From Rhynchopus sp. YZ270_cl-10 (taxonomy: Eukaryota): a stretch of 64,000 nt of DNA. Positions 19,462 through 60,187 of the stretch are shown piece by piece. The translations under genes and the position numbers were made by a program. The DNA is taken from contig OZ037837.1 in NCBI GenBank assembly GCA_964035575.1, forward strand, positions 682,001-746,000, written 5' to 3'. How positions within the stretch are numbered: position 1 is the stretch's first letter; every line of letters starts with the position of its first letter. The notes below the pieces were generated by a model. The model was not told the DNA's origin, ran no database searches, and saw nothing but the letters and a program-made list of their open reading frames with translations.

Positions 19462-21459
19462 TCACGCCATCTCTTCATCCTTAGCCGTTCCGTAGTCGTA
19501 CACGTCACATCCTTCAACCAGAGCTGAAGCATCCTCCGCACAGTCCTGTTGTATGTTGTACGCCACAGACCTGCGTCGCCGTGCAAACAGCACTCCTGCC
19601 AGCACCACAACCAGAAGTGCACCAGAACCAGCCAGCAGCCAAACGTAGGTGGGAAGCGCGACTGTTGGAACAGCCGTTGGTGGTGCCTGTGTCGTGACAC
19701 GACATGTGCTGAAGCTGAAGTTCGCCACCACACCGTTGAGGGGCACATCCCCAGGGAACGTGCTCGTGTAGATGTGGTTGTCGGTGCGTGTGTCAAGTAC
19801 TGGGAGAGGACCTGAGGCAGAGACACGTTCAACACCATCGAAGAAGAGCTGTGCAAAGCCTGTGTTGTGTGACGTCGCCGTCACGACAAGCACCACATGC
19901 ATGAAGACACCGCAGCACGGTCCCGGCACAGGGTCGATGAAGATGATGTGCTGTGCACCCTGCCACACTTGGTACTCCCACTGGCCCTTGCTGTCGATGG
20001 TGAGGATCACGTTGTTCTTCTCCATTCCATTCGAGAACTCGAAGACACGTCCCATATCATTCACACCGTCCACCCGCACGTCTGCCTCCATGATGAAGCC
20101 GTCCCCTCCCAACGTGAGTGGTGCGTTACTGACAAACTCAGACGAGTCGGTGAACTGTGTGATGAGGACTGGATCCTCACACGGCAGGACTACTGGTGCC
20201 GCTGTTGGTGCAACTGTCGGAACAGCTGTTGGTGGTGCCGCTGTTGGTGCAACTGTCGGAACAGCTGTTGGTGGTGCCGCTGTTGGTGCAACTGTCGGAA
20301 CAGCTGTTGGTGGTGCCGCTGTTGGTGCAACTGTCGGAACAGCTGTTGGTGGTGCCGCTGTTGGTGCAACTGTCGGAACAGCTGTTGGTGGTGCCGCTGT
20401 TGGCGGAACTGGTGTTGGCTGGATGCCCCAGGAGAAGTGTGAGGCTTGCTCAGACTCGACGAAGATCTGCTTGCCCCTCACACAGGGGACATCCCTATAG
20501 ACGTTGACGTTGTAGAAGAGGCCACTGAAGGAAAACGCCGTCTCAGTGCCTGTGTGGTCGTGTATCGTGACAAACCCTGGCTCGTTTTTCTTCAGTGAGA
20601 ACGTCAACGTCGCGTTTTCTGTGCATGTGATAACACCTGCGTATGTCTCTTCGCTGGATGAGAGCTCACCGTTCATGCCCCACGTCGTGTTGACACCATC
20701 GTAACTGCCTGCAGCGATGTGCTGTGTGACTGCGTCAGGCGACAGTGCAGGTGTCAGCAGTTCGGGCACGCCATTGTTCGGAACAAACGTTACTCCCACG
20801 AACATGGAGAAGAAGTCCAGACGCTTATAGCTTGACTCCCAATCCAGCTTCACACACAGGTCGTCACCACGCTCCCACGCAGCATGGTCAAACGGCACAC
20901 CCGTCACCTCCACAGTCATCGATTTCCATTTCGTCATGTTCACATCCTTCGAGAACAGTGTTGTCGCGTTCGACCCACACCCCTGTGTGATGGACAACGT
21001 CGCAGAGAGCAAGGGATCTGCTTGAGTACCGATCCGCAGACTGGCGATAGACACAACGTAGTTGTCCATCACATCACCCTCAAGCAGGCTGATGGCAGAG
21101 CCCACACCAGCAGAAAGACCTCCAGACCTGTGTGGTGGTGTTGTGTGTGGCACTATGTTCCTCATTCCAAGCTGTGCTTCACTCTGTGTGCAAATGTGGC
21201 AAAAGGTTCACAACCCTCTGGTTGCTGTATTTCCTCTTCCTCGACACGATGTGTTTTACTACAAAAGATGTTAAAGCGCACAGATCTGTGTTTTGCATCT
21301 TGGCATTGTTCTGAAGTGGAAGAGGGTCACATACCCGACTGTGACACGCGCCTGTGTCGTCTGCATCTCGTGCACCGTGCTGGCCAGTGAAGCCTCTGCC
21401 AGAAGGGACAGCAGCACAAAGGCTGTGGTGTGCTTCCCCCGCTGACATGTTGTTGACAT
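19462..21459 (-). CDS. Variable-domain type-I membrane protein, locus A (~596 aa): signal peptide, V domain, PT stalk, LamG/ConA-like domain, TM, short tail
   Basis: join(21459..21335, 21127..19462). Phase-2 intron 21128-21334 (GTATGT…CACACAG). Leader MSTTCQRGKHTTAFVLLSLLAEASLA. 13-aa PTAAPPTAVPTVA repeats. LamG-like FIMEADVRVD…RVFEFSNG…MHVVLVV…LFFDG…NHI…LNGVV. TM YVWLLAGSGALLVVVLAGVLFA followed by RRRR. Confidence 0.9.
20195..20405 (-). repeat. 39-bp coding tandem repeat (~5 copies), mucin-like PT stalk
   Basis: Exact repeats of GGTGCCGCTGTTGGTGCAACTGTCGGAACAGCTGTTGGT. Confidence 0.95.
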
Positions 21460-21850
21460 TGTGGTACCTGGTGTGGTGTGGTCGTGGTGAGGATGAGCGA
21501 TCTGGAAAAAGACACTGGGGGACAGAAAAACCTTTCTGTGACCTCGGGAGGACCCAACACCCCGACCAGCCTGCCTGCCCTCTCCCCACTGCACTGGCAA
21601 CGTGATGTCCTCATCTGGGTGGTGTCGTCTCTAACACCAGAAGAGTTGAGCAGAGCACACAAGCGAGTGTCGTGTCGTCCAGCAGGAGCACCTTGCAAGC
21701 ACAATAGTCAAAGGCACCCTTCTTCCTGCAGGGCAGGGTTCAGGGAAGTAGCGGCAGACTGTGCACCCTGACGACAACGATACCGACACGAGGATGAAGG
21801 ATGCTCTGTGTCTTGTTGTTGTCTTAAACTTCGTTCCTCATATAATACAT

Positions 21851-22764: not shown

Positions 22765-25700
22765 ATGGGAAATTAAAGGCTGGTAGCTGAAAGGCAGGCA
22801 CCTGAGTACTAAAAAAAATGTAACATGGGTGCTCCTGACGGCCCCATATTGCGTACTTCTTGCGTACTTAGTGCTGTACAAAATAGTGACGTTAGGTCCT
22901 GTCATTTGACAGAGGTTGTGGCTCTGGTCGGAACCAGGCTCCAACCCGCCCCAGAATAGGAAAAAAGGAAGGGAGTTGGGTGTTCAATTTCCTTTTAGCA
23001 TTGCATGTAATCATATAAAAAAGTGTGATCCGTGCATTCAGTGAAGACTTTGTTTCTGAGTTGGAAAACGGAGAAAGATCAAAACACTGATGCGGGGGAA
23101 ATATAACAAAACAAAAGCAAAACACAGCGAAACACTGAGTTGTGCCTCGCGAACATTGAGGCGTTAGCCCTGATTGCATTTTCTTAGAATTGAACGATTC
23201 TCAACATGTTTTACGGAAACGGTAACAAGACCCTCCGCCTTTGTTGGTACGCTAGCCACGTCCGTTCAGTGCAGCTGCGCTATCGTCTCCTCCACTGCAA
23301 CGCGAAGCCCGCAACGGCCGATTCATCCGTCTTCCAACTGCAGCGAAGTCTCCATCACCTTCATCGGCAACGGAGCTGGTGTCTTCGTTGCTGTTCAATG
23401 CAGAAAAGTCGAGGTTAAGTGCCTTCTTCGAAATGTTGTAGTTCATCAGCGCACCTGTCGATGTGGCCGCCCAGTCTCCACCTTCCGTGTACCAACTATC
23501 CCTCCCTTCCTCCCAATACATGCCGTGCTGTCCCTGCAGCAGTGCTTCCGGTTGAGATGGGGACAAAAGCGAAGGTGATTTCTTCAGCTGTGCGAGGCGT
23601 ACTGCAAGAAACTTCGCGTCTTTCTTGTGCAAAACGATGTTGCACCTCAAATACAACCCCTGTGCCTCGTTGTTGTAGTCGCCACACTCGTGCAGTCCTT
23701 TCTTCAAGATGCGGCGTGCCATATCGGTGTCATCCTGAGCCCTCAACCAGTACTGTTGTGCAGTGATTTAAAGGTAATGTGAAAGAGGAACACAATAAAG
23801 TCTTTGAAACAAAGATGGGGTTTTGGTTTTCTGCTGCTGTTGTTTTCTTGTTCTTGATAATCTGTTGCCTTAGTGTGGCCGCCATTCAGACAGCTTCACT
23901 GTCCTCCTTCTTAGTTGCAGGAGGGGAGGACAGCATCGCATACATGAAAGAGCAAGAAGTGAGACAAAACAAGACAAAGAGCATGCATACGTTTTCAAAA
24001 CCCCAATCCTGTTCTGCAAGGAGTTCGAACTGCGCACGCAAGTACATTTCTGCAACTTCAAGTTTCAGCTCCTCTCCAAGGCGAGCTGAATAACGAGCAA
24101 GATACACAGGGATGGCACACATGTTCCGCACACGCTGTTTCCTTGCAGATTCGAAGATGCATGTGTACAGCACCTTCAGACGGTCCACAAATTCACGTTC
24201 CTTCCCTTCTTGGAAGTAGGTCCAGCCAAAGTGTGTCCGCAGTCCTTCACGCGCTATTCTCACGAAGTACTTTGGTGCCTCACGCAGGGTGGGGTCTGAG
24301 TCACAGAAGTTCATCCCAGTGGCCACAAGGATGGCGATGCTGTGGTGCGTCTTCTCACAGAGCTGGCTGTGCTCACCGTCCGTGCCGGAGGTGAAGGAGA
24401 AGCCCTGCTGCGAGACGCACATTTCTGTGCTCAGTTCCATCAGCGACTTCGCCAACGTCTGTCTCGCATGTTCCTTTGAGGTGAAGCCGTACTGTGCAGG
24501 TTCCGCCTGTACGGTGGCCATCCACGATGTGAACTTGTCACGGGTGACTTCAATAGGCTCTGCACCGTCGTCATCAAGGTTGCCGTCCAGATACTTAAGC
24601 GATGGTTTGTTAATGTTGAGTATATACAGAGCGCGGTAGTACCCTATCGTATCGCCACGTGCGTCCAGGTCACGACGTGCAGAGTCTAGGGCTTGTTCGT
24701 TCCTTGTAACGATAGCTTGCACGTCCTCTCTCTTACGTTTCTCGTTTGTCTCTTACGTTTAACCCTTTAAGGACCAGAGGGGACATATATGTCCACGCAA
24801 CCACCTAAATTGGCTTCCACTAGGACTTTTTGAAGATTTTTACAACTTACCTTCCTTCACCCCCCCCCCCTGTAAGGGCAACCGTAGGTGAAGTAAGGTA
24901 TAGTATTGAAATCGATGTGGGGGGGGAGTAAAGGGTCAATTTTACAAAACCAGATTTTGAGGAAAATTTTAGCCGAAAATGGGCCCCACGTATAAGCAAC
25001 CGGGCTCATATTTCTCAAAATTTAAGTGGTCAAAAAATTGTCCAATTTTCGAGATTGACCCCACCACTGCACGGGCGGAGCCCAAAAATGCAAATAAGGA
25101 CCCTTTTCAACTTACCTTCACCGTGCGCTGGTCAGAGGATACCTGGTCAGTTGACCAGGTAATATGACCAGGTTTTGACCTGGTCAGATTGACCAGGTAC
25201 ACCTGGTCATGACCAGGTATACCTGGTCAATGACCAGGTATTGACCAGGTATACCTGGTCAGTGACCAGGTATTTGGCCACTGTGACCAGGTTTTTTTTT
25301 TTTTTTGACAACACAAAAATGCCCTTGGTGGGTCCATATGACCTCAAAACTGGGCTAAAAGTGCAAATAAAGGCACTTACGAGCAGTTTAGAGCATCTAG
25401 AATTTATTCCACGGCTATTTGTGTGCACCCTGTACATTTTGTATGGGCATCACCTTAGCAAAAAATCGAAAAATCTCAAAAAAAAAAATTTTTTTTTCGG
25501 GAAAAATTTGGCCTCTGGGTTGGGTCTTGGGGCACCGAAAAATGCAAAAAAACGCAAAATTCGGGTGTTTTGACCATCTGGGGTTTCACCAAATACACGT
25601 ATTTGAACAATCCTACACGAAACAGTGGTTAGACAAGGCGATTTTTGACCAAAGAAAAAATAACTTTTTTGCCCAAAATAGGCCGTGGTAGGTCATAAAA

Positions 25701-26393
25701 TGGCCCAAAAAATCCAAAGAAAACCTCAGATTGGGCAAATGTTGAAAAAAATTTTCAAGTCAAAATTTCAGCCAAAATACGGTCATACCCCGTGTACTGT
25801 AGTAGCTAATTTTTACGATTTGAGGCCATAAAAGCAAAATTTGGCACTTTTGAGCCTCTGTAGGGGTCTAAAATGTCTAAAATGTGGTTTTGCGTACTCG
25901 ATTTTTTAGACGAATTTTTTTTTCTGTACTGGACACTGGGCACTGTACCCAGAGAAGGCACCTTGACAGCAGCGAAGGCGCAGGTTACGATGAAGACAAG
26001 GTATGTAAATATGTTTAACTGTCAGGCACTAGTGTAGATTCATTCCTTTAGTGGTTGTCAAGTTGTTGTGTGGTGGTGTTTGTTTTCCCTGATCACCGAT
26101 CTCACTCTTTTTTGGCTGGTGCTTGCAGACTACCCCTACTTTGTGTAATCGGAATAAACTTACATATTGCTTGTCATGAGGCAGCCGTTTTTTAACTTCT
26201 GCAGGCGTGCTCGTTACCTGCTGCACATAATATTCACCTCGCTTCGCTCGGTAAATACTTATACATGGTCCCCTCGCTTCGCTTGGGAACCATTAGTGCA
26301 GCAGGAAATCCGCTGTGGCGTGAAAAAAAGGCTACCTTATTTCACGGCAATGCATAGTTATTACCACTTTCTTCATTAACCTCATCTTTAATA

Positions 26394-26581
26394 CTGGAAA
26401 ATCGTTTAATTTGTCACACCCTAATTAACCGAGTTGAAATATCAGTCATAAATGAATTTTGTCACCCCCTCACATTACGTCGGGCGGTTTTTTGTGTCTA
26501 CTTTTTAAAGTACAGCCTTGAGTGATACTTTCTGTATTAGGGACGGAAGAATTGTAGGTGACAAATTAAACGATTTTACAG
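26394..26581. mobile_element. Tc1/mariner-type MITE (188 bp)
   Basis: 24-bp TIR CTG(G/T)AAAATCGTTTAATTTGTCAC with TA on both sides. Confidence 0.85.
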
Positions 26582-27336
26582 TACTGCGTTTATACACCAT
26601 AACTTAATCACACCCCACATTTACACTCATCACAGGATCGTGAAATCTGAACTGCATCCGTGATTGCGATGAGAAGTTTCGCCGCTCTTCGACATTCTAT
26701 CAACAACTCAAAAATCCGAAAGGCTTCACCCACATCAATCTATTCTGGGTTTGTGGACGAAGACCTGGGGGGTGGGAATATTTTGTCAGTCACTGCTATT
26801 GCCATTTAACCCAGGGAGCATAGCTAGTGCAAGAAATTCGACCTTTGGAAACCTTCCGGAAAGTCTGTCCTCTGCTTGCGGAGGACTAGACACAAGAAAA
26901 TATTGCGTTCCCCCAGAAAACCAGTGCACATTTCACACTCCTTGTGGGTGGTCTTGTTGCCTTTTTTGTCAACAGTAATTTTGGCCCAGGCATGCTCTTG
27001 AAGCATGACAATTTAGTGTGTATGGGGCAGGGTGTTGTTTTGTTCTGAATTCTCTTTGTTATAACATCTAAGTCAATCGCGGGTGGTGGTTTGTGTAGGA
27101 GGCACTCTTTTTAGCAAACTTCCTGCGGCTGCTAAAGTGTTATTTCTTCGGATTTAACAACGTACAGCGTAACATAGTGGTTTAGCCTGGTCGACACAAC
27201 CTTTGATAGATATGGGATAACCAACCCCCTTCGACCCCTTGTGGGTTCACTGAACAAGCCCTCGTGGTAGTTAAACGCGATTGACATTTACATTCCTAGA
27301 GATGAAAGAACAAGACAACACTTCTGTACCCGCGCA

Positions 27337-27620
27337 TCAAAATTGTGGAAAACTTTGCACCCCAAACACCCTCAACAACGCCCGCCAAAAGGCGCCCCTT
27401 GTTGCTGGGAGTTGGTTCTCATGATACCTGCACAGCGGGCATTCCTCTGAGTCCAACGCATGTTTGGCCTGTCTGCGGCGTTGTACTTCAGGTGCACGAA
27501 GACAGGGTCTGGTGGTAAATTTTGCGTAGTACTGCGACGTGGTACTGCGTGGGTCTGGGAACCTGGGTACAGGATATTTGTTGTGGAAGACATCAACCAC
27601 CATGCATTGAGGAGGGTAAG
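27337..27620 (-). pseudogene. Degenerate Cys-rich fragment, possibly a transposase C-terminus; second copy at ~45660-45900
   Basis: Frame-disrupted ECPLC…PFGGRC*GCLGCKVFHN. 27340-27560 matches the reverse complement of ~45670-45890. Confidence 0.35.
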
Positions 27621-28809
27621 ACAGTGTTCGCAGTTTCTACCTGAGAGCATTACAACATTTAACTTCTCCACGGGGGTCTTGGGCCGTTCACTCGGTTCTA
27701 CCTTGACTACCGGAAGATATTCTTGAGGCCTTTTTGGTCTCTAGAATATCCGGTCTTCCCGAACGGAGGCACACTTTGTGTGTTACTACGACCTGGCAAT
27801 TTCCAGCAGTAGGTTAAGTAATCTTTCTTGTAAATTGTTGGATCATTATCTCCTCAGTGCATGAATGCCCCACGTGACTGGACACTTTTGTGTTTGTCAT
27901 GTGGAGCTGTGGTTGCTCTTTCACGACTTTTTTCTTGTTCCTGGGTACCTGTTCCTGGACCTGGACCTGGGTACCTGGGTACCTGGGTACCTGGTCACCT
28001 GGGCGCCTGGGTACTTACCTGGGTAAATGTGACCAGGTACCTGGTCATCTGACCAGGTACACCTGGTCATGACCAGGTATACCTGGTCATGACCAGGTGT
28101 ACCTGGTCAGATCTGACCAGGTGTACCTGGTCATAAATCTGACCAGGTATTACCTGGTCAGACCTCTGACCAGCGCACGGTGTTCCTTCACCCCCCCCCC
28201 CTGTAAGGGCAACCGTAGGTGAAGTAAGGTATAGTATTGAAATCGATGTGGGGGGGGGAGTAAAGGGTCAATTTTACAAAACCAGATTTTGAGGAAAATT
28301 TTAGCCGAAAATGGGCCCCACGTATAAGCAACCGGGCTCATATTTCTCAAAATTTAAGTGGTCAAAAAATTGTCCAATTTTCGAGATTGACCCCACCACT
28401 GCACGGGCGGAGCCCAAAAATGCAAATAAGGACCCTTTTTCAACTTACCTTCCTTCACCCCCCCCCTGTAAGGGCAACCGTAGGTGAAGTAAGGTATAGT
28501 ATTGAAATCGATGTGGGGGGGGAGTAAAGGGTCAATTTTACAAAACCAGATTTTGAGGAAAATTTTAGCCGAAAATGGGCCCCACGTATAAGCAACCGGG
28601 CTCATATTTCTCAAAATTTAAGTGGTCAAAAAATTGTCCAATTTTCGAGATTGACCCCACCACTGCACGGGCGGAGCCCAAAAATGCAAATAAGGACCCT
28701 TTTTAATTTGTTCTCTTGAAATGTGTAATTTCATGTTTTCGCGAAAAAAATTACAACTGATCCTACAAGGGTTGAAGGAAGGTGGTTGAAAACAACAATA
28801 ACAACAAGG

Positions 28810-29249
28810 ACAAGTAATTGCTAAGAAAAAAGCGGGGTGTGCTGTGGAAAACTCCGCGCGATTTTCGAACCACCGTAGCATCCTGGCGATTTGCTGGAGG
28901 TGCTGATGTGCCTGGTGTGATCGATGTGTTGTAGTCTGTGCATTCTGTGTTCCTTCCGCACTGCTCCAACGACGACGACAATGTGGGGAGCCTGTGGACA
29001 AAAACGAGCTGGACCACGCCGAGCCTGCCGAGCCGACGTCCAACAACGCTCTCGAGCGGATGGTGCTGGACGAAGAGGACAGCCCCCCTTCTTGAACGTT
29101 TCAGATGCTGGCGTCCCAGTGGGTCTGGCAGCGTACGAAGAGCGTTAGCATACCTGCAGAAGAGCAGAATGCTGGGCGTGTTGTAGATTATTTCTACAGG
29201 ATGGAGTTCCACATCACACCCCGTTTTTTTTCCGATAGCAATTACTTGT
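28810..29249. mobile_element. Small inverted-repeat element enclosing a GC-rich, coding-like fragment
   Basis: Arms ACAAGTAATTGCTA…AAAA(G)CGGGGTGTG…GTGGAA…CTCC and GGAGTTCCAC…CACACCCCGTTTTT…TAGCAATTACTTGT. The interior reads as a decayed hydrophobic segment, RRR and an acidic tail. Confidence 0.55.
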
Positions 29250-32062
29250 TTTTTAATGAGAAGATTTTGTGCGAAATCTTTCAAAAGACGCAAGATTCGA
29301 TTTTTTTTGACGCTCTCATCCCCTCTCATCCACACCCGGCATTATCACATAATAGGGTATTTTGGGTCATTTTTTGGGAATAATGTACCATTCTGACGCG
29401 CTTGAGTCATCAGAGGATTCAAACTTTGGTGTGCAGGGAACCATTTTGTACGGTCTTCAGAACGAAACTAAAATAATGGAAAATACCCGCGACTGGGCAA
29501 AGTAAGCGTCGTCCTTCTTCTTATCCTCGATGATGTCGCGTGACGTGTACCAGAGCGACGTCCCGCTCGTCTCGGATTCGAAGCACGTCTGGTGCGACAG
29601 CCTCATCAGGTCTCTGAGGCAGGTCCTCAGGGTCGCGTGCTTGCGTGCCACCTCGCGGAGCGTGCCCATACCCTTCCCAAGCGACGCGACGCTGCGTGCA
29701 CAGAACACCTCGCTCGTCTTGTCCTTGCGCGTCACTGTGATCTGCGTCTTGTGTGCCTTGTTCTGCGCATCACGCATCGACGCGTTCAAGACGTAGTACG
29801 GCTGGTCCGCAAACTCGCAGCAGGATTTGTACAGCACACACGGTGGCACGTCTGCTCCAGGTACGGCGATGAACTTGTTCTTCCCAGACAGCGAAGCGTG
29901 CAGGGGTTGTTCGACGTGTGTCCAGTCTGCCACGCCTGCCGAGGACCAGTACACGGCCTGGATGTCGAGAGCGTGGAGGATCGTCAGCGGCGTCGGTGCC
30001 TGGCCTTCGGGGGCCTCACGCACGGCGATGGCGACCTTGTGTGCCACGAGCGCTTGGAACGGGCTGTAGTCGTGTTTGTGCTCGGTACTCAGTGCGTCGA
30101 GGTCTTCCTTGCAGCCTTTGTCGTACTGCTGCTGGTTCTTCTCGCGCACGCAACGGTCCTTCAGCGCACCCACCGCACAGAAGAAGCAGCTGTCGTCACA
30201 GCGGACGTACGCTGTCTCTGTCCCCGCCACCTTGTCCTTCCTCCCCGCAAGCAGCACCTTCTCCTCACGCGCACGGCACGCAAACGCATCCTCCGAACGC
30301 AGATAGTGCAGACCACCCTCGGCCACCCGCGGTGCGACACCTCTGCGCACGCCGCAGCAAGCTTGTTCTTCTCCACGTCCGTCGCAGGCGCTGCCCCACG
30401 CAGGCCGTCGATGTAGCACGCCAGGTGCGCCAACGGGTCGCACGGCTTATGCTGAAGCAGCTCGTTCACAAGCTCGTCGACCAGCTTCAGTATGCTGTGC
30501 TGCTTTGCGTATGCTTGCACCTCCTCGCGTGGGCCGAACATGGTGGTGTGTTGCTTCCTGCAAGGTGTGTGGTGTGTGGACGGTGTGTGGACGGTGTGTG
30601 GACGGTGTGTGGTGTGTGTGTGGGTGCATGCTTCCGAAGCCATATATCCCAGAAGTACGCGATGTCTGTCTACCCCACAACGAGATCATCAAACACACAA
30701 TCTGACTTTCGACTTCCGAATATGAGAGGTGAGTAAAAAGAAAACAAAAAACAACTTTTTTCCGTTTATCGCTCTGCAAATTTGTTGTGTTTTTTTTTTC
30801 TTTTTTTGCTGTATGAGGAGAGTGATAAAACGCATACTGGAAAGAATGAAACACAATGTGTAGCCACGCACCTTCCGTTCGATTCTATTTCCTCCATTCC
30901 CATGCTTGCTATATACAGTCACACAACAAACACAGGTAGGGAAATCTCTGAGGGTTTTGACCCCACTGATATTTGTTCTGTGGATGTATATGAAAGAAAA
31001 TAAACAGGAGTCGATCGACCTCTCGTCGTCATTTAAGAAGAGAAGTGCGAATGGCTCAAAATAAGTTTCAATTATAAGTCAGCAATCCTATGACATTACG
31101 AAGGTTGCTTTTAAAGAAAACAAGCTTTTTTTCAGATGAATGTGCCTCTCGTGCACACACACGCATCATTTTTCTTTTTTTCAAATACCTTACAGTCAGA
31201 CCATGAATCCCTCACATCCCACAGACTTAAAAAGAGGGGCAAATCAGAGCGAGTGGCAGTACATGATAGCGTTAACCATCTCTCTCTGCACGTTTTGTTG
31301 TGTCGACAACCACCAACAGCATCCACTTGGTGGGTAGGGTCATAGGGAGAAAGAGACTTGTTACTTTTTTCTCAAAAAAAAAAGACCACAAAAACTGGGG
31401 GAAAAAATCAGGTTGTTTGTTGTTCGCTTCCACAAACAAGCCGGGGGGGGGCGAGTCTACACTGATACAACCAAGTTAAAAAAAAAAATAGAAAAAAAGA
31501 AAAAAAACAATACTGAACAGATGTGGAAGGTACAGAAAAAAAGGGGAAGGGAATGGGGTAGGTGAGGGACATAACATCTTGTTTTTGCTGTCTCAGAGAC
31601 TTTGTGGTACATTTTTTTTTGTTTTTTTTTTAGTGCAGGTTTGGGTCCTTGGTTGCACAAAAAGAAAAGGATTAAAAACACACACAAACATTTGCAAAAA
31701 ACAAGATTTTTTTTAAAAAAATAAAACAAATAGACCTGAAAGCATACTGGGACTGCGAACACCTTACCACACTGAAACACACTGTCTGAAGAACACTAAC
31801 TTTGACTCGAAACAAACCAAAAAGCCCTCTCGTCACAGTGCACATCCTTGAACATGATTGCGGTACCTCGACAAAGATTTGCCTCTCTCTCGTTCGTCTT
31901 TTTGTTGAGTTGAATTTAGTTAAAGTGTGAGCGTCAGCACTTCTTTGTTGCACACTGAAAGGAGGCATCTTCATCCCAAATCTCAAACCTTATTTGCTGT
32001 TGTCGACGAAATCATTATTCCGATAAAAAAAACGGAACAAAGTTCTCTTAAAAATTTTTTTT

Positions 32063-33403: not shown

Positions 33404-33535
33404 CGTTATTAATTGAGTCTTTTTCAAAAAAAAAAATGTGTTTATTGCTTCAATCCTGGAGTGTAGGGATGTATTGAAAATCGATAGTACTATCAAGAGT
33501 GTAAGGGTTGAAGAGCAAAGTGTAAGGAAAACATT

Positions 33536-36029: not shown

Positions 36030-36533
36030 TCACGTCATCTCTTCCTCCACGTAGTCGTACGCGTCACATCCTTCAACCAGAGCTGAAGCATCCTGTACGC
36101 AGTGCTGTTGTCCGTTGTACTCCACCACAGACCTGCGTCGCCCTGCAAACAGCACTCCTGCCAGCACCACAACCAGAAGTGCACCAGAACCAGCCAGCAT
36201 CCAAACGTAGGTGGGGATACCAGAGCCCGTCCCCTCACTTCCAAACCTGTGTAGGTAGTGTTGTGTAGGGCATAAGGATCATTCTGAAAAAAAGTGTGCT
36301 TTATTGTCTCTGCTAGACCCCTCTGTGCAAATGTGGCAAAAGGTTCACAACCCCTCTGGTTGCTGTATTTCCTCTTCCTCGACACGATGTGTTTTACTAC
36401 AAAAGATGTTAAAGCGCACAGATCTGTGTTTTGCATCTTGGCATTGTTCTGAAGTGGAAGAGGCTATGAGGGTCACATACCCGACTTCGACAGGTGACAG
36501 TGTTGGCGCAACTGTCGTGACAGCTGTTGGCGG
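36030..36533 (-). other. Orphan second TM/cytoplasmic-tail exon (36246..36030) with its intron and a stub of a PT-stalk exon
   Basis: Phase-2 acceptor CTACACAG|G-TTT-GGA. Intact frame FGSEGTGSGIPTYVWMLAGSGALLVVVLAGVLFAGRRR…YDYVEEEMT*. Family intron 36247-36480. Stub PPTAVTTVAPTLSPVEVG at 36481-36533. Confidence 0.85.
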
Positions 36534-36789: not shown

Positions 36790-39700
36790 TCACGTCATCT
36801 CTTCCTCCACGTAGTCGTACGCGTCACATCCTTCAACCAGAGCTGAAGCATCCTGCTCGCAGTGCTGTTGTCCGTTGTACGCCACCACAGACCTGCGTCG
36901 CCGTGCAAACAGCACTCCTGCCAGCACCACAACCAGAAGTGCACCAGAACCAGCCAGCATCCAAACGTAGGTGGGGATACCGGATCCTGTCCCCTTGTCC
37001 TGCACTGCTGGTACTGGTGCTTGTGCAGCCCACTGCAGGCCACAGGGCGCAACGCAGCTGGCAACAACCGCACTCCCCTTCACACACCGCACCACAAGCA
37101 CACCCTCCATGTTGCTCGCCACGTGCAGCGTCAGGTCCGCCCCCACTGCCGACACCGACCCCAGCGTGGCCGTCACCGTCACGTCTGCGTCATCCTCGCA
37201 CAGCAGCGTGCCTGAGAAGTCCTTCACAGCAGAGCTGTGTGCACCTGACGTCTGCAGGCTTGCTCCTGTCGCGTTCACAGCCTTCGCCACAGACAGTGTG
37301 GGCAGCACGTCCACTTCGGAACCCCCTGGCACATCGTGAGGCACAAACACCGACTGCACACGCATTGTGAAGGCGAAACTCATACGCCCCGTCTGCGCCG
37401 ACATGGGGCTCGCACGGAAATACATCTTCTCTGCGTACACCGTGCTTGGCGTGCCAACAAACGTCTCGTTTGGGCCAAGTGTCACCTCCGTCGACCACAG
37501 CACGGCGTCGCTGTTCGCCGAGTGAAGCACCAACACAAACTCCACTGTCTCCCCCTCAGTCGGCCCACGGGTCAGCACAAAGCTCAGCATGTATGCCGTG
37601 TGTGAGTCAGACAGGTCCACCTTTGTGAGCTTGAACGGCGACATCAGGTCCAGCGAGACTGTGTTCACCATGCTGTGTGTTTGAAACATGAAGCAGTTTT
37701 CGTGGAATTCATAATAGTGCAGGACCGCGGTACAAAACAAGCTTGACATACCTGTGCACGCGAAAGTCAATGAAGCCCTCGACAACTGCCGAAAGAAATT
37801 CTGTTCCGTTCACGAGAGGTGGTGATGTCGTCACAATGAATGGTGGCACTGCGGACGGGTCGACACTTGTTGAGGGCACGTGCGTTGGCCCGCCCCACCC
37901 AAACACAGCATCGGCAGTGGCAGACACCCATATGGCACTGCCACGCAGGCAGGTCGTCGTGAAGACCGTCACCACACCTGGGTCCTGAAACATGAAGGAC
38001 GTCGTGTTCGAGGCCAGCACACGCAACGAACCTCTGAACGGAGACACCGTGAACGTCATCTCGCTGTCCACAGCACCACAGTCCAGCATCTGCATCTCAG
38101 ACGTCATATCGTGATTGTGGCTCTCGCCAGACATCGGCAAAAGAGGCAAGAACCCAAACTCATTTCTGTTGAGTCGCAACCGCGCCACGTCCAGCACAGG
38201 CACCTCAGGCATTGGTGTGAACTTGGTGTGCAACAACATCGTGCAATTGAATTCGTTTCCGCCTTCCTTCTGTGCCTGGAACAACACTGTGAACGTCTTT
38301 CCGTCCAAAGTCTCCTCTGCCGTGATCGTGGCAGTTTGCCCCGGGCCGAGAGTGACCCACTGCAGGACGCTCCCTGTGTCGCCAATCACTGTAACCCAAA
38401 AGATCGCACTTTCGCTGTCACCTGCAGCACGTGACAGCGTGAGTGCATCAAATGAAAGCAACTGACCAGGAACACTCAAGAATCCTTGAGCCAACTCAAA
38501 AACAGACCTGCAAAAATGGAGAATGGAGATACGTGGGGTGGGTGGGCCATTCCCATTGAGGGTAAGGAACAAACAAAAGAAAAGGATGCAAGATGCATCT
38601 AAGCCCCACGTGCTTAATCATAATCAATAATAGTATCAAAACATACCCCGGATCGTGTGTGCGCACCCGAGCCTTGACAATTTGAGTGACGGCGACAGCA
38701 ACTGCGACTGGTGACAATGTTGTCTCAACAGTGGGAAGAGCTGTTGGCAGTGCTGTTGGGGGACTAGCTGTTGGTGGAGCAACTGTCGGGGAAACTGTTG
38801 GCCAAGGTGTTGGCGGGGCAACTGTTGGGGAAACTGTCGGAACAGCAGTTGGCACAGCTGTGGGAGGAGCAACTGTTGGGGCTGCTGTTGGGGAAACTGT
38901 CGGAACAGCAGTTGGCACTGCTGTTGGTGGAGCAACTGTCGGGGAAACTGTTGGCCCAGGTGTTGGCGGGGCAACTGTTGGGGAAACTGTCGGAACAACA
39001 GTTGGCACAGCTGTGGGAGGAGCAACTGTTGGGGCAACTGTCGGCACTGCAGTTGGCACAGCTGTTAGTGGAGCAAGTGTTGGCCAAACTGTAGGCACTG
39101 CAGTTGGCACAGCTGTGGGAGGAGCAACTGTTGGGGCTGCTGTTGGGGAAACTGTCGGAACAGCAGTTGGCACTGCTGTTGGTGGAGCAACTGTCGGGGA
39201 AACTGTTGGCCCAGGTGTTGGCGGGGCAACTGTTGGGGAAACTGTCGGAACAACAGTTGGCACAGCTGTGGGAGGAGCAACTGTCGGCACTGCAGTTGGC
39301 ACAGCTGTTAGTGGAGCAAGTGTTGGCCAAACTGTAGGCACTGCAGTTGGCACAGCTGTTGGTGGAACAAATGTTGGTGCAACTGTCGGAACAGCTGTTG
39401 GCGGTACTGCTGTTGGGGTTACGTCAAAGAAGGCCCAGGAGAAGTGTGAGGCTTGCTCAGACACGACGAAGATCTGCTTGCCCTTCACACAGGGGACATC
39501 CATCCAAACGATGCCGTTGTTCTTGTTTGCGCTGAAGGAAAACGCCGTCTCAGCACCTGTGTGGTCGTGGATCGTGACAAACCCTGGCTCGTTCGCCTTC
39601 AGTGAGAACCTCAACTTCCCGTACTCTGTGCATGTGATAACACCTGCGTATGTCTGTGCACTGGAAGAGAGCTCACCGTTCATGCCCCACGTCGTGTTGA

Positions 39701-42519
39701 CACCATCGTAACTGCCTGCAGCGATGTGCTGTGTGACTGCGTCAGGCGACAGTGCAGGTGTCAGCAGTTCGGGCACGCCATTGTTCGGAACAAACGTTAA
39801 TCCCACGGACATGGAGAAAAATTCCAGAAGTGCAGACGTCCCTGTCAGCTTCAAACACAGATCGTCACCACGCTCCCACGCAGCACGGTCAAACAGCACA
39901 CCCGTCACCTCCACAGTCTTCAATCTCCATGCCCCCATGGTCACATCCTTTGAGAACAGTACTGCTGCGTTCGACCCACACCCCTGTGTGATGGACAGCG
40001 TCGCGAAGAGAGGATCTGCTTTGGTTTGGAGCCTCAGACTGGCGATAGACACAACGTAGTTGTCCATCACATCACCCTCAAGCAGGCTGATGGCAGAGCC
40101 CACACCAGCAGAAAGACCTCCAGACCTGTGTGGTGGTGTTGTGTGTGGCACTATGTTCCTCATTCCAAGTACACAAAGATGCGTAATACTGTGCTTCACT
40201 CTGTGTGCAAATGTGGCAAAAGGTTCACAACCCTCTGGTTGTTGTATTTCCTCTTCCTCGACACGATGTGTTTTACTACAAAAGATGTTAAAGCGCACAG
40301 ATCTGTGTTTTGCATCTTGACATTGTTCTGAAGTGGAAGAGGGCCACATACCCGACTGTGACACGCGCCTGTGTCATGTGCATCTCGTAGAAGAAGGCGT
40401 TCCAGGAGAAGTATGAGGCTTGCTCAGACACGACGAAGATCTGCTTGCCCTTCACACAGGGGACATCCATCCAAACGACGCCGTTGTTGTTGCTTGCGCT
40501 GAAGGAAAACGCCTGTGTGCCTGTGTGGTCGTGTATCGTGACAAACCCTGGCTCGTTGTCCTTCAGTGAGAACCTCAACTTCCCGTACTCTGTGCATGTG
40601 ATAACACCTGCGTATGTCTGTGCACTGGAAGAGAGCTCACCGTTCATGCCCCACGTCGTGTTGACACCATCGTAACTGCCTGCAGCGATGTGCTGTGTGA
40701 CTGCGTCAGGCGACAGTGCAGGTGTCAGCAGTTCGGGCACGCCATTCTTCGGAACAAACGTTAATCCCACGGACATGGAGAAAAATTCCAGAAGTGCAGA
40801 CGTCCCTGTCAGCTTCACACACAGGTCGTCACCACGCTCCCACGCAGCACGGTCAAACGGCACACCCGTCACCTCCACAGTCATCAATCTCCATGCCCCC
40901 ATGTTCACATCCTTCGAGAACAGTGTTGGTGTATTCGACCCACACCCCTGTGTGATGGACAGCGTCACATCCGCATCTTCTTTTGCCCAGATGGTCAGAC
41001 TGGTGATAGACACAACATAGTTGTCCATCACGTCACCCTCAAGCAGGCTGATGGCAGAGCCCACACCAGCAGAAAGAGTTCCAGACCTGTGTGGTGGTGT
41101 TGTGTGTGGCACTATGTTCACAACCCCTATGGTTGTTGTATTTCCTCTTCCTCGACACGATGTGTTTTACTACAAAAGATGTTAAAGCGCACAGATCTGT
41201 GTTTTACATCTTGACACTGTTCTGAAGTGGAAGAGGGCCACATACCCGACTGTGACACGCGCCAGTGTCCTGTGCATCTCGTGCACCGGGCGGGCAACTG
41301 ATGCAGCAAGTGTAGTTGGTGGTGTTTCTGTTGCTGGTGCTGCAGTGGCAGGAGTCGGTGTTGGTGGTGCAACTGTTTGCGGTGCGGACGTTACGCGGGC
41401 GGGCATACTGGTGACAGGTGTCTGTGTTGGTGGTGGAAGTGTTGACATAGCTGTCGGTACTGCTGTTGGGGTTGCGTCAAAGGCCCAGGAGAAGTGTGAG
41501 GCTTGCTCAGACACGACGAAGATCTGCTTGCCCTTCACACAGGGGACATCCCAAGAAACGTAGGCGTTGTTGTTGCTTGCGCTGAAGGAAAACGCCGTCT
41601 CAGCGCCTGTGTGGTCGTGTATCGTGAGAAACCCTGGCTTGTAGGACTTCAGTGAGAACGTCACCTTCCCGGACTCTGTGCATGTGATAATACCTGCAGA
41701 TATCTGTGCACTGGAGGAGAGCTCACCACTCATGCCCCACGTCGTGTCGACACCATCGTAGCTGCCTGCAGCGATGTGCTGTGTGACTGCGTCAGGCGAC
41801 AGTGCAGGTGTCAGCAGTTCGGGAACGCCATTCTTCGGAACAAACGTTAATCCCACGAACATGGAGAAGAAGTTCACAAGCTGAGCATCCCCTGTCAGCT
41901 TCACACACAGGTCGTCACCACGCTCCCACGCAGCACGGTCAAACGGCACACCCGTCACCTCCACAACTACCGATGTCTCCCTGTTCACATCCTTCGAAAA
42001 CAGAGTTGTCGCGTTCGACCCACACCCCTGTGTGATGGACAGCGTCGCAGTAAAGACATCTGTTTGGAGCTTCAGACTGGCGATAGACACAACATAGTTG
42101 TCCATCACATCACCCTCAAGCAGGCTGATGGCAGAGCCCACACCAGCAGAAAGACCTCCAGACCTGTGTGGTGGTGTTGTGTGTGGCACTATGTTCCTCA
42201 TTCCAAGTACACAAAGATGCGTAATACTGTGCTTCACTCTGTGTGCAAATGTGGCAAAAGGTTCACAACCCTCTGGTTGCTGTATTTCCTCTTCCTCGAC
42301 ACGATGTGTTTTACGACAAAAGATGTTAAAGCGCACAGATCTGTGTTTTGCATCTTGGCATTGTTCTGAAGTGGAAGAGGCTATGAGGGTAACATACCCG
42401 ACTGTGACACGCGCCTGTGTCCTGCTCATCTCGTGCACCGTGCTGGCCAGTGAAGCCTCTGCCAGAAGAGACAGCAGCACAAAGGCTGTGTGCTTCCCCC
42501 GCTGACATGTTGTTGACAT
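36790..42519 (-). CDS. Variable-domain type-I membrane protein, locus B (~1630 aa): leader, three V domains, long PT stalk, two further beta-rich modules, TM, tail
   Basis: join(42519..42398, 42163..41246, 41086..40352, 40125..38647, 38507..37752, 37672..36790) = 4893 nt, open throughout. All five introns are GTATGT…CAG and phase 2. Internal exons of 918, 735, 1479 and 756 nt are all multiples of 3. Confidence 0.88.
38720..39420 (-). repeat. Coding higher-order PT-rich repeat (PTAV/PTVA/PTVS units)
   Basis: About 230 codons of degenerate 12-15-nt units with a duplicated larger block (…PTVWPTLAPLTAV… occurs twice). Confidence 0.95.
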
Positions 42520-45539: not shown

Positions 45540-45542
45540 TAA

Positions 45543-49996: not shown

Positions 49997-50877
49997 TAGG
50001 TGTATCGGTCTTCCCTGCAAAGAGGAGGGGGGATAGAGGAATCAACTCTTAACGTACACTCTCTGTTGATTCCGGAGGAGGGTAAAAAAAAAGCGCGGTA
50101 AATTGGGGAAGAGGTTTGAAAAGTTGGAACGCTTCCTCACCCCCCCAGATCACACACTCTTCCCTGGAAGAGGAGGGGGTAGAGGAATCGGTGAAAATGA
50201 ATTTCTTTTAACTGCACTCCCTATCCAAAGGGGATGTCTAGCTTAGGACAAACCCGGAAGAGGGGGTAGGGAGGGGGAGAAGAAACGTTGAAGAAAGGAA
50301 GAAAAAAAAAAACGGATGCGGGTTTTCGTTATTTTACAGTCTCTCTCTCATAGAAGAAGTGAAGGCGTGTAGGTATGTAGCAACGTTCACTAAATACACC
50401 AGAATATTCACATAAAAAGAAAGCCCATCCTGGGGTGTCTAGACTAACACAGTTGTTAGAGAGTAGAGACAAACGTGGGTAAGCTGAACCTCTGTGTTTA
50501 GTCCTAGAGAGATCGTCCGAAAGAGAAGCAAAAGATGCAAGAAAGAACACCTCCTCCCCCTCCCCTCCCCTCTTAGTGTGTGTGAGGGGTTGTGGATGTG
50601 TACCACAGTAGCATGCTGTGTAGCACAATTTCGCAAACCCGCAAATTTATCGTCCCTTTTTCCCGCACCTATGAGATGTACAGATAAAAGGAGGACCCAA
50701 CACCATCGCAAAACACCCCTCCCCCCCTCCTTTTCCCGTTACAATACGACGGAACCTAGTGACAAGTGAAACACATGTCATGACAAGTGTTCACTTGTCA
50801 CCTTTTTCACTTGGCACCTATCACTGGGTCCCGTCGTGTAACCAGCAACAGTACTCATAATTCAACTCCTCTCTTTT

Positions 50878-55594: not shown

Positions 55595-58500
55595 AGTGGA
55601 GAGGGTGTATGTTGTATGTCTGTAAAGGTTTATGAATAGTAGGTACCAACGGAGTACATAGTTGATGCAGTCAGGACCTCCGACTGACTCACGATGCGAG
55701 TCATCCGGATGAAAGTATAAGGCCCTAAGGCTAAGAAGGTGTGAAATGGAGGCCTCATGGCTTATCTGTACCGCAGTGTGTGAACGGGGGCGGCGCGCAG
55801 CCGCCACCTTCCCCTTTGCGCTGACCTTCCGAGAGATGCTGATCAATGGCAAGCACGGCATCATAACAAAAAGGGGGTTTATGTAGAAAGGCGAACCCAC
55901 CTTTGCATGTACGGTGATAGAAAAGTAAGGGGGGCTGGGGGTGCCAGGGGGAACACGTAAATAATGAGTGCTAAACCGAATAATGGGAGAAGGGTGGACT
56001 CGACTCAACGGTCCTATCACGACGGACTAATCAAGGGGACCAGAGTAGTGCTAGACTGGTGTGTTACTGGTGTAACACTAGTCGTAAAAACACTAGCCAT
56101 TTGGACTAGTAGCATAACTAGTGGTCCTTTTGACTCATCTGCCGTAATCAAGTAGTCGTGGGAGGCTCAACAACTGCAACAACCATCTTCTGCCCAGTTA
56201 GGGCCTTTGTTGGATGCGTTGCTGCTGCCCTTAAAGAAGCCTGCCACGTTTGATGAAAAGTTTTATTTCCCAACCCAACAATGATAAAGCGTGAAGACAA
56301 TAAATAGCAAATAATAATGAATCTAAGGTCTTGTGAGGCATCAACGAGTGTGCCGGCTCTTTGGCGTCACGGAGCCACCAACACTCCCTGCGCCTGCAGG
56401 AAAACTCGCGTACGTGACTAAGGGAGTGCAATATTTTTGCAAGGAACGCATAAAAAAACAAAAAAACAGAATCTGCAAACACGTTTCTGCTTGCAGCAGT
56501 GGTTTCGCACAAAACAAAGTGAAGTTATTAATGCAGGCACCTCCGACTGACCCACGTACGATGCCAGCCATCCGGATGAAAGCACAAGTACCCTGCGGCC
56601 AACAACAGAAGATATAAAGAGGAAACCTAATGACTGGCCCGTACCGTAAGAGAACGAGGGCGGTTCACATGCTTGGTACACGATAGTCTACACAAGAGAG
56701 CAGAAACCCAAAAACACAAAAAGGGGTGGGCGGGGGGGGTCACAACATCTCTCTCTTGGCGCCCCATGCTGTACCGACAGTTGGGCCTCACCCTTTCTCT
56801 TAGGGATATACATGGACGTCCTTACAGGCAGCACACCGTAACCCAAAGGCGTGGCATCCGCAGAGCGACTCTGGCCTGACCGCTGGCCAGTTATGCTCCG
56901 GGTGCGAGCACCCATCATAGCATAGGGGGGCCAGCCTGACCCAGCATTTATATACCCTGCCAGGGTGAACTTGCATAAAAGAGGGTAGGGGCGTTTAGAC
57001 CCTGAAGTCCCGCATACCCCAACAGAAAGACAAAGGCTATGCACTGGTGATATAGGAGAGGCAGGGTTGCTGAAAAACAAAAAGACCCTGAAGGCACAAA
57101 AACGCCCCGCATACCCCTCCTCGCCTCCTGTTTTGTAATCTCTCAGGTAGGAGACATCGGTTCGAGCGGTCAACACCTTCATAGAGTTTCTGGAGGAATG
57201 GACCCCCGGATGCAATTTAAGGTCCAGCCCAGGACCAAAAAAAAAAGTTGCGTACCGTGCGCCTGCGGCGCAAGCATGTACCCCACCAACGTGGACCATC
57301 AACAGAACATTTTCAAAATCGGAAATCCTAGCGGAGAGCCTGATCCACATAGATAAAGAAAACAAAAACACGACACGACAGCAAGAAAGGAAGTAAAAAT
57401 TATTTTTTTAAAAAAGACTGCACGGTAAACAGACGTAACTCACTCCATCTCTTCCTCCACGTAGTCGTACGCGTCACATCCTTCAACCAGAGTTGAAGCA
57501 TCCTGCTCGCAGTGCTGCTGTCCGTTGTACTCCACCACAGACCTGCGTCGCCCTGCAAACAGCACTCCTGCCAGCACCACAACCAGAAGTGCACCAGAAC
57601 CAGCCAGCAGCCAAACGTAGGTGGGGATACCAGAGCCCGTCCCCTCACTTCCAAACCTGTGTCGGTAGTGTTGTGTAGGGCATAAGGATCATTCCGCAAA
57701 AAAGTGTGCTTTATTGTCTCTGTTAGACCCCTGTGTGCAAAAGTGGCAAAAGGTTCACAACCCTCTGGTTGTTGTATTTCCTCTTCCTCGACACGATGTG
57801 TTTTACTACAAAAGATGTTAAAGCGCACAGATCTGTGTTTTGCATCTTGGCATTGTTCTGAAGTGGGAGAGAGACACATACCCGACTTCGACAGGCGCCG
57901 CTGTTGGTGCAACTGTCGGTGGTGTTTCTGTTGCTGGTGTTGCAGTGTCAGGCGTCGGTGTTGTCGGTGCAACTGTTTGCGGTGTGGGCGTTACTGGTGC
58001 AGCTGTGTCAGGTGCTGATGTGGCAGGCACAGCGGTGACAGGTGTCTGTGTTGGTGGTGCAACTGTGTGAATATCTATTGACGGGACAACTGCGGTTGGT
58101 GGTGCAACTGTTTGCGGTGCGGGCGTTGCTGGTGCAGCTGTGTCAGGTGCTGATGTGGCAGGCACAGCGGTGACAGGTGTCTGTGGTGCCTGTGTCGTGG
58201 CCCTGCATGTGCTGAAGCTAAAGTTCGCCACCACACCGTTGAAGGGCACATCAATAGGGAACGTGCTCGTGTAGATGTGGTTGTCGGTGCGTGTGTCAAG
58301 TACTGGGAGAGGACCTGAGGCAGCCACACGTTCAACACCATCGAAGAAGAGCTGTGCAAAGCCTGTGTCGTGTGACGTCGCCGTCACGACAAGCGTCACA
58401 TGCATGAAGACACCGCAGCACGTTCCCGGCACAGGGTCGATGAAGATGATGTGCTGCGCACCCTGCCACACATGGTACTCCCACTGGCCCTTGCCGTTGA

Positions 58501-60187
58501 TGGCGAGGATCACACCGTTCTTCTCCATCCCATTCGAGAACTCGAAGACACGTCCCATATAATTCACACCGTCCACCCGCACGTCTGCCTCCATAATGAA
58601 GCCGTCCCCTCCCAACGTGAGTGGTGCGTTGCTGACAAACTCAGACGAGTCGGTGAACTGTGTGATGAGGACTGGATTCTCACACGGCAGGACTACTGGT
58701 GCTGTTGCCTGTGTCTTGGCCCGACATGTGCTGAAGCTGAAGTTCGCCACCACACCGTCGAGGGGCACATCCCCAGGGAACGTGCTCGTGTAGATGTGGT
58801 TGTCGGTGCGTGTGTCAAGTACTGGGAGCGGACCTGAGGCAGAGACACGTTCAACACCATCGATGAAGAGCTGTGCAAAGCCTGTGACATGTGACGTCGC
58901 CGTCACAACAAGCACCATATGCATGAAGACACCGCAGCACGGTCCCGGCACAGGGTCGCTCAAGATGATGTACTGTTTACCCTGCCACACGTGATACTGC
59001 CACTGGCCATCGGCGTTGATGGTGAGGATGACGCCGTTCTTCGCCTTCCCATTTGAGAACTCGAAGACACGTCCCATCCAGGCAACCTTGTCCACCCGCA
59101 CGTCTGCCTCCATGATGAAGCCGTCCCCTCCCAACGAGTGGTGCGTCGCTGACAAACTCAGACGAGTCGGTGAACTGTGTGATGAGGACTGGATCCTCAC
59201 ACGGCAGGACTACTGGTGCCGCTGTTGGTGCAACTGTCGGAACAGCCGTTGGTGGAGCAACTGTTGGGGAAACTGTTGGCGGAACATCCGTTGGCGGTAC
59301 TGCTGTTGGGGTTACGTCAAAGAAGGCCCAGGAGAAGTGTGAGGCTTGCTCAGACACGACGAAGATCTGCTTGCCCTTCACACAGGGGACTTCCACCAAG
59401 CTGTGGAAGTATCTTCCCCCCCCAGTAAACGCAGTCACAGCACCTGTGTGGTCGTGTATCGTGACAAACCCTGGATCGTATTTCTTCATTGTGAACGTCA
59501 CCTTCCCGTACTTTGTGCATGTGATAACACCTGCGTATGTCTCTGCACTGGATGAGAGCTCACCGTTCATGCCCCACGTCGTGTTGACACCATCGTAGCT
59601 GCCTGCAGCGATGTGCTGTGTGACTGCGTCAGGCGACAGTGCAGGTGTCAACAGTTCGGGCACGCCTTTGTTCGGAACAAACGTTAATTCTATGAGCATG
59701 GAGTAGAAACCTATATCAGCCCCTGTCAGCTTCACACACAGGTCGTCACCACGCTCCCACGCAGCACGGTCAAACGGCACACCCGTCACATACACAGGAC
59801 GGGACCATTCCCATGAATCCATGGCCACATACTGCGAGAACAGTGTTGTCGCGTTCGACCCACACCCCTGTGTGATGGATGTCACCGATCCAGCATAGGC
59901 ATCTGCTTTCATCCTCAGACTGGCGATAGACACAACATAGTTGTCCATCACATCACCCTCAAGCAGGCTGATGGCAGAGCCCACACCAGCAGAAAGACCT
60001 CCAGACCTGTGTGGTGGTGTTGTGTGTGACACTTTTTTTTTGTTTCGGACATTGAAACATGTAGTCAACTATTGTGCTCTGATTGTTAGCCGCTTGTGTA
60101 AAACAGAGAAAAGTTTATAAGATGATCCTAAGCCTCTCGTGCTTAGTCACCTGAGGGGGAGAATAGAACCTGGCGGAGAGACACAGG

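Follow-up and report, generated by a model that had tools for sequence, protein, structure and literature searches.

A 64,000-nt window of the Rhynchopus sp. YZ270_cl-10 genome (contig OZ037837.1, positions 682,001 to 746,000 of the forward strand) contains five copies of a ~230-residue unit in which four short hypervariable loops interrupt a conserved framework. The unit defines an undescribed domain family carried by predicted surface proteins of this diplonemid, and we regard the family as a germline-encoded, diversified repertoire of receptors or adhesins. The explanation that we hold, with modest confidence, is that in these stalked proteins gene conversion both unifies the scaffold and swaps loops, while selection keeps the loop sets distinct for the binding of prey, host or substrate.

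Hypervariable loops and the wider family

All five copies lie on the minus strand, with exon starts at 21127, 40125, 41086, 42163 and 60006, and an identical AG acceptor precedes each of them. Their alignment consists of long identical runs of DNA and protein, interrupted by four short segments of substitutions and frame-keeping insertions or deletions (indels); identity to copy 1 ranges between 75 and 82%. A first-pass annotation of this DNA had described the five copies, the shared framework and the variable segments. The exon starts are verified, the framework and loop strings it quoted are all present in the translations, and the loops remain hypervariable in 12 further copies from outside the window. 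In copy 1 the loops are placed as follows:

21001..21033, minus strand: hypervariable loop 1, residues 32–42
20914..20940, minus strand: hypervariable loop 2, residues 63–71
20812..20844, minus strand: hypervariable loop 3, residues 95–105
20494..20526, minus strand: hypervariable loop 4, residues 201–211, in the second subdomain (D2)

Protein-level statistics are based on 17 copies, comprising the five in the window and 12 of 14 close copies outside it (P0015 and P0016 are omitted as near-duplicates of P0012). Identity in the four loops is 32, 38, 43 and 46%, versus 77–93% in framework segments, and a fifth, weaker variable patch spans residues 170–182 (55%). The lag-1 autocorrelation of column entropy is 0.52, versus a maximum of 0.27 in 10,000 shuffles, and variability is therefore clustered beyond chance. 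Indels fall mostly within the loops and their net lengths preserve the reading frame; in all 17 copies the domain is free of stop codons. A frameshift artefact as the source of the loops was rejected on two grounds: no indel shifts the frame, and variation at the same loops is also seen in copies from other contigs. The loops had also been described as rich in aromatic residues and Asn; enrichment is present but modest, with Trp, Tyr and Phe together at 14.4% versus 9.7% (1.5-fold), Trp at 5.6% versus 1.7% (3-fold) and Asn at 6.8% versus 3.2% (2-fold), in copies that are not independent of one another.

The family comprises at least 19 close copies, five in the window and 14 on five other ENA contigs. 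Five more distant copies (22–31% identity) occur on two further contigs, and all of these are unnamed proteins. The outside copies were gathered by protein searches, and DNA-level tests cover the five window copies. The other contigs probably derive from the same organism as the window, because they share its intron read-through tails. Three of the outside copies, P0012, P0015 and P0016, are near-identical sisters on one contig. The only outside relative of a neighbouring open reading frame (ORF) is a Rhynchopus euleeides protein, 51% identical, in agreement with the protist host that had been proposed.

Besides family members, no match below an E-value of 0.001 is found among 1.84 billion representative sequences, bar one spurious repeat match; P0024 was discarded, its match being confined to a 30-residue repeat. 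Scans of JGI metagenomes yield no family match, and a PDB sequence search returns just two chance rows (E 1 and 4.6). No Pfam family reaches its cut-off for the unit in 22 members, nor for its separate halves, so that the domain, unrecognised in the first-pass annotation, matches no Pfam family; the DGF-1 beta-sheet family appears in one of the 22 members only, at E 0.11. Listings of the literature on diplonemid surface proteins, lectins, receptors and hypervariable proteins, outside subscription papers, showed no description of the family. The accessible part of the main text of the D. papillatum genome paper (PMC10161547) mentions neither laminin, concanavalin nor receptor, and the accessible part of its supplement holds a few orthogroups so labelled, which could not be matched by sequence.

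Gene architecture, splicing and predicted fold

The five window copies belong to three minus-strand genes that share a plan of signal peptide, one or more domains, Pro/Thr stalk and one predicted membrane helix. This agrees with the earlier description of stalked type-I membrane proteins in architecture but not in number: there are three genes rather than five, three copies are tandem exons of a single 1630-residue gene, and copy 3 has no stalk. Gene 1 (21459–19462) joins a signal-peptide exon to one large exon to give an open 596-residue protein, in which just one hydrophobic stretch exceeds 2.0. Gene 2 (42519–36790) has six exons and five phase-2 introns and is open throughout; it encodes a signal peptide followed by three young units, then a long stalk and a pair of divergent units ahead of the helix and tail, and thus five units in series. 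Gene 3 (61833–57440) encodes one unit and two Laminin G3 domains, and carries a 2-base deletion near 59136 as assembled. The features are:

21335..21459, minus strand: gene 1 exon 1, with the ATG and a predicted signal peptide; a phase-2 GT donor comes next; open when joined to exon 2
19462..21127, minus strand: gene 1 exon 2, with domain copy 1, Pro/Thr stalk, Laminin G3, membrane helix, tail and stop
20428..21126, minus strand: domain copy 1, 233 residues; predicted jelly roll D1 (residues 1–116), helical linker, predicted jelly roll D2 (residues 141–233)
20194..20411, minus strand: Pro/Thr stalk of gene 1, a 39-bp tandem repeat
19705..20115, minus strand: Laminin_G_3 (PF13385) of gene 1, E 4.6e-7
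19582..19638, minus strand: single predicted membrane helix of gene 1 (Kyte-Doolittle 2.51); RRRR and a short tail containing two clusters of Tyr come after it
42398..42519, minus strand: gene 2 exon 1, signal peptide
41246..42163, minus strand: gene 2 exon 2, which encodes copy 4 of the domain with a short stalk; run X5 shows it joined to exon 3
40352..41086, minus strand: gene 2 exon 3, which encodes copy 3 of the domain and lacks a stalk
38647..40125, minus strand: gene 2 exon 4, which encodes copy 2 of the domain with a long Pro/Thr stalk; run X5 shows it joined to exon 5
37752..38507, minus strand: gene 2 exon 5, a probable, highly divergent unit with weak scores (hhalign E 0.039; hmmsearch E 0.13); both flanking introns seen as joints
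36790..37672, minus strand: gene 2 exon 6, divergent unit (hhalign E 1.2e-4; hmmsearch E 3.8e-4), membrane helix, tail and stop
36030..36246, minus strand: spare membrane-anchor exon behind the gene 2 stop, preceded by a family-type intron (36247–36480)
61709..61833, minus strand: gene 3 exon 1, signal peptide; predicted splice, followed by a 1702-nt intron
57882..60006, minus strand: gene 3 exon 2, which encodes copy 5 of the domain, then a stalk, a pair of Laminin G3 domains and a further stalk; frame broken near 59136 in the first Laminin G3
57440..57656, minus strand: gene 3 exon 3, membrane helix and tail
63369..64000, minus strand: 3' end of a fourth family gene, with Laminin G3 and membrane helix, cut at the window edge

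Exons 2–5 of gene 2 all run from phase 2 to phase 2 and are thus same-phase tandem cassette exons, and every one of the five window units, loops included, occupies one unbroken genomic exon. The spare anchor exon is also phase 2 and could therefore act as an alternative last exon of gene 2. The last ~12 codons of the signal-peptide exon (42398–42432 in gene 2, 21335–21369 in gene 1) recur at the ends of gene 2 exons 2 and 3 (41246–41280 and 40352–40386) with the same intron behind them, which suggests that the duplicated unit consists of exon tail, intron and domain.

Four sequencing runs were compared with gene 2, and X5 alone shows joints at predicted introns, at three of the five (37673–37751, 38508–38646 and 41087–41245). 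X5 is taken to be RNA on the sole basis that these joints are intron-exact. The X5 piece across the exon 2–3 joint matches with zero mismatches, and the piece at the last joint has eight and may represent an allele or a paralogue. X5 places exons 2 and 3 of gene 2 in series and lists no skipping forms, though contigs drop rare forms. Loose ends of X5 at 36247 and 36479 agree with splicing of the spare anchor exon onto the gene 2 3' untranslated region. For the gene 1 intron, no corresponding joint is present among the run joints examined. Contig depth, when summed, is much greater over the domain than over its flanks, a difference that does not give a copy number.

Several further features of these genes stand apart from the domain itself. 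The first intron of gene 3 (60007–61708) is 1702 nt long, versus 159–234 nt in its sisters, and holds a 156-nt palindrome (61452–61607) and a dispersed repeat with a second site at 808–1040. The Laminin G3 copies (19705–20115, 58183–59171 and 63525–64000, minus strand) show small clusters of differences on a near-identical background, at codons 29–32, 43–55 and 59–72 of the three complete copies. The cytoplasmic tails (36792–36900, 19462–19580 and 57440–57550, minus strand) retain two Tyr clusters and two Cys residues; those of genes 2 and 3, and not that of gene 1, contain a YxxV motif, which we take to fit the endocytosis consensus.

AlphaFold2, supplied with 22 sequences, predicts two beta-sandwiches and a helical linker (predicted local distance difference test, pLDDT, 76; predicted template modelling score 0.67), and D1 modelled alone gives a pLDDT of 75. 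D1 aligns to jelly rolls with Z-scores up to 8.0, including a viral capsid (8.0), PHR (7.9), XepA, the Cwp84 lectin-like domain, GOLD, carbohydrate-binding modules (CBMs) and an F-type lectin; with the CBMs and the F-type lectin, Z is 6.5–6.8, the root-mean-square deviation (rmsd) 2.6–2.8 over 87–94 residues and identity 11–18%. The top Foldseek row for D1 is CBM4 (E 2.8e-3). D2 matches PPC (5sv5; Z 7.0, rmsd 3.3, 89 residues), 1nqd (Z 6.8) and the second CUB domain of C1s (Z 6.6) at 7–14% identity, and the top Foldseek row for the whole unit is the tandem ColG s3a-s3b (E 9.6e-5, template modelling score, TM, 0.26). A viral fold library offers weak CBM-like and F5/8-like rows only (TM at most 0.32). 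The unit is thus predicted to comprise two jelly-roll sandwiches, CBM/PHR-like and then PPC/CUB-like; the fold class alone is fixed, because no match row stands clear of the others. The leading fold rows are jelly rolls, with no immunoglobulin domain noticed among them, although this does not exclude an unlisted family. The "antibody-like" description is therefore retained as an analogy of pattern only.

Column entropy at alternate D1 turns is 1.53, 1.97 and 1.64 for loops 1–3, versus 0.24 and 0.67 at the turns between them. Since alternate turns fall at opposite ends of a sandwich if successive strands reverse direction, loops 1–3 are predicted to lie at one end of D1 and the conserved turns at the other, where a Cys50-Cys91 pair would also lie. 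Variable residues alternate along the strands. By strand order, the predicted grouping at one end takes in loops 1–3 of D1; loop 4 belongs to D2, where the pattern is weaker. A homodimer prediction of the unit, computed without an alignment, scores 0.00 and speaks neither for nor against pairing.

Divergence, exchange and competing explanations

The loop segments were defined from the 12 outside proteins alone and then applied to the five window DNAs. In these, the proportion of replacement differences is 0.353 in loop segments versus 0.073 outside them, and that of silent differences 0.268 versus 0.090, a silent estimate that may be too high if short loops are misaligned or carry multi-base changes. 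At codons encoding the same residue, silent differences amount to 23 of 106 (22%) in loop segments versus 3–8% in all outside bins, and six family introns differ by 0–8% over the part that they share. Fawcett and Innan (PMC3924837), in the part of their paper available to us, treat a local divergence peak as a sign that selection maintains differences in the face of gene conversion. The loop pattern takes the form of such peaks and fits loops that escape gene conversion under selection, with some loop swapping.

Evidence of exchange comes from several sources. First, a test similar to the pairwise homoplasy index (PHI) gives p 0.008 on the 17 proteins. Second, individual copies appear mosaic: P0014 has loop 1 exactly as in P0006 and loops 2–4 shared with or closest to P0004; in P0018 there is one switch between P0012 and P0017; and copies 2 and 3 share 187 identical bases that include loop 3, yet differ wholly in loop 1. 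Third, of 401 quartets that could be tested, an unbiased scan finds 41 with p≤0.05, of which 21 have p≤0.01, although quartets are not independent. Loop swapping is thus likely in some copies, and is not proven as a general rule.

These patterns suggest a mechanism with several steps. Exon duplication would multiply the domain unit, and gene conversion would keep framework and introns alike while sometimes swapping loops among copies. Selection for distinct specificities would stop homogenisation of the loops, which would therefore gather silent change too. The four loops would bind surface molecules of prey, host or substrate, probably with a specificity of its own for each copy; the putative ligand may be a glycan or glycoprotein met during attachment or feeding, and the short Tyr-bearing tail may couple binding to uptake. 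The partner domain, a ConA-like Laminin G3, favours this account. Classic diplonemids are described as predators, scavengers, epibionts or opportunistic parasites in the consulted part of a published account (PMC8061765). A bolder form of the idea, that an antibody-like repertoire evolved independently in a free-living marine protist, with a new tandem jelly-roll scaffold, three loops at one sandwich end that resemble complementarity-determining regions and are kept diverse by selection, cassette conversion, multivalent chains of same-phase exons and a prey or host specificity for each loop set, is less likely than not, and we put it forward tentatively.

A number of results weigh against the account of conversion and selection. 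The ratio of replacement to silent rates (omega) in the loops, for which the first-pass annotation had named values above 1 as support, is 1.48 and does not differ from 1 (twice the log-likelihood difference, 2ΔlnL, 1.6), with a bootstrap range of 0.84–2.22 for the ratio of replacement to silent proportions. Framework omega is 0.92 in the five copies, and purifying selection on the framework is therefore weak among them. Model M2a improves on M1a (2ΔlnL 68, omega 8.1 at 17% of sites), but this was rejected as proof of selection because a better fit with an equal number of parameters comes from a fast neutral class of omega 1, whose silent and replacement sites both change ~9-fold faster (log likelihood −1924.4 versus −1929.8); a free class (rate 5.3, omega 1.8) gains a 2ΔlnL of only 3.4. 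The PHI-like test gives p 0.31 on the framework only and p 0.22 on the five DNAs, the four mosaic triplets were picked after viewing, the strongest quartets all involve P0006 or P0014, the hand-picked quartet reaches p 0.08, and one of five DNA quartets falls below p 0.05. Z-scores of 7–8 may reflect just a common arrangement, with viral capsids among the top rows. Loop placement was derived from strand order rather than coordinates, and the loop segments take in strand ends; D2 entropies (0.40, 1.16, 1.60 and 0.11 versus 0.83, 0.51 and 0.41) show a less clear alternation. Finally, gene 3 is frameshifted as assembled.

Several of these observations would suit loops that are merely relaxed, in which structurally tolerant segments mutate rapidly around indels and divergence itself blocks conversion, with no selection on specificity. 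The fast omega-1 class is the best fit among the equal-parameter models, silent change is raised in the loops, framework omega is near 1 and one gene is frameshifted. Relaxation does not readily explain why length changes keep the frame, why no copy has a stop in the domain, or why the turns of one end are conserved and the alternate turns vary (1.5–2.0 bits) with variable residues alternating along strands. Loops are also exchanged between copies and so form no absolute barrier to conversion. We consider relaxed loops decidedly unlikely.

The joint rise of silent and replacement rates, together with many changes of entire codons that lie between identical flanks (in the loop segments, 103 of the 228 codon pairs that differ do so at two or three bases), could also point to programmed diversification, in which an enzyme rewrites loops from templates or by targeted mutation, in the manner of diversity-generating retroelements (DGRs) or AID. 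DGR mutagenesis is adenine-specific and produces few indels, whereas changes in the loop segments show no base bias, all six types being about equally common (AC 18, AG 26, CG 20, CT 15, GT 21, AT 16). There is no reverse transcriptase among 16 window ORFs scanned, and each copy is a whole germline exon. Such a system appears extremely improbable.

Other alternatives accept selection on the loops and assign it a different cause. If the loops were recognised by viruses, predators or host lectins and diversified to avoid binding, identical divergence peaks would be predicted, and long Pro/Thr stalks with N-glycan sequons would suit such a coat. Evasion antigens usually vary across the whole exposed surface, whereas in this family almost no variation is seen at the other turns or in the linker. 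The Trp enrichment of the loops and the lectin-like partner domain also argue against evasion, as do different units spliced in series in one apparent transcript, an arrangement better suited to avidity or breadth than to switching. Some diplonemids parasitise lobsters and clams (PMC8061765, as far as consulted), a habit in which a coat could serve. An evasion coat is unlikely, if worth serious attention.

Recognition of self or kin, in which like loops bind like loops between cells, is known from Dscam, clustered protocadherins and TgrB1/TgrC1. The same-phase cassette exons with distinct loop sets and the combinatorial sharing of loops would fit this function. In X5, however, two variable exons appear in series rather than as alternatives, and the sisters P0012, P0015 and P0016 are nearly identical; kin recognition is accordingly very improbable. 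We therefore continue to favour, with the reserve stated above, a binding repertoire kept distinct by selection under gene conversion.

Neighbouring features, significance and comparison with known systems

The remainder of the window contains unrelated genes and repeats. A 2565-residue intronless ORF at 2796–10493 (minus strand) has an NAD:arginine ADP-ribosyltransferase (ART) domain (E 8.8e-5), and its fragments recur at 23261–24740 (99.3%) and 29506–30682. The segment at 24759–29512 contains palindromes and 264-bp tandem or inverted repeats (25119–25292, 28010–28173 and 28183–28704), with pieces matching 44816–45165, and resembles a non-autonomous mobile element. At 47669–50041 (minus strand) a GNAT acetyltransferase ORF and a DUF6687 ORF lie side by side with no obvious introns, and an aminotransferase class V ORF is located at 32063–33535.

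Diplonemids are among the most diverse marine eukaryotes and, to our knowledge, the molecular basis of their prey or host choice is not known. The family supplies candidates for this choice, and gene 2 is probably expressed, given the apparent RNA origin of X5. Near-identical frameworks with different loops provide a built-in comparison for binding, and the unit is a natural small binder scaffold on a predicted jelly-roll fold. The family is also a clear case in which a standard dN/dS test signals strong selection (omega 8), although a raised silent rate accounts for most of that signal.

Antibody variable domains are beta-sandwiches whose conserved framework contains a disulfide and whose three variable loops are grouped at one end. 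The predicted arrangement of D1 is alike in its conserved framework, its putative disulfide and its three variable loops at one sandwich end. The differences are that the best fold matches here are jelly rolls, that each variant is a fixed germline exon with no sign of somatic rearrangement, that the unit is not assembled from separate gene segments, and that variants number in the tens. The same-phase tandem variable exons of gene 2 resemble Dscam-type cassettes.

D1 aligns with the jelly rolls of carbohydrate-binding modules and F-type lectins (CBM4, CBM62, BT0996-C and SpX-3), and the available part of one study describes, for jelly-roll CBM6, a "variable loop site" in addition to a site on the concave face (PMC5798181). 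Unlike established members of these groups, the unit has only 11–18% identity, no Pfam match and Z-scores tied with PHR, GOLD and viral capsids; it forms a tandem pair on a membrane stalk, and sugar binding is putative. D2 similarly aligns with PPC, collagen-binding and CUB domains, but at 7–14% identity, with no sequence family match and no enzyme domain attached. The human red/green opsin genes (PMC3924837, in part) show the same high divergence at small targets and low divergence in flanks and introns; the family here differs in its at least 19 copies, its four peaks with indels and its probable swapping of some loops.

The closest functional parallel may be bodonin of Bodo saltans, for which the consulted part of the original report (PMC4728078) proposes attachment of the cell to prey and substrate. 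Both are lineage-specific, multi-copy transmembrane glycoprotein families of free-living euglenozoans. Bodonin, as far as that part describes it, has about seven membrane helices and an autotransporter-like or leucine-rich-repeat-like ectodomain, whereas the family described here has one predicted helix, jelly-roll units, introns and four hypervariable loops. By analogy, the Rhynchopus family is not bodonin but would work as has been proposed for it, and as other diversified adhesin families do.

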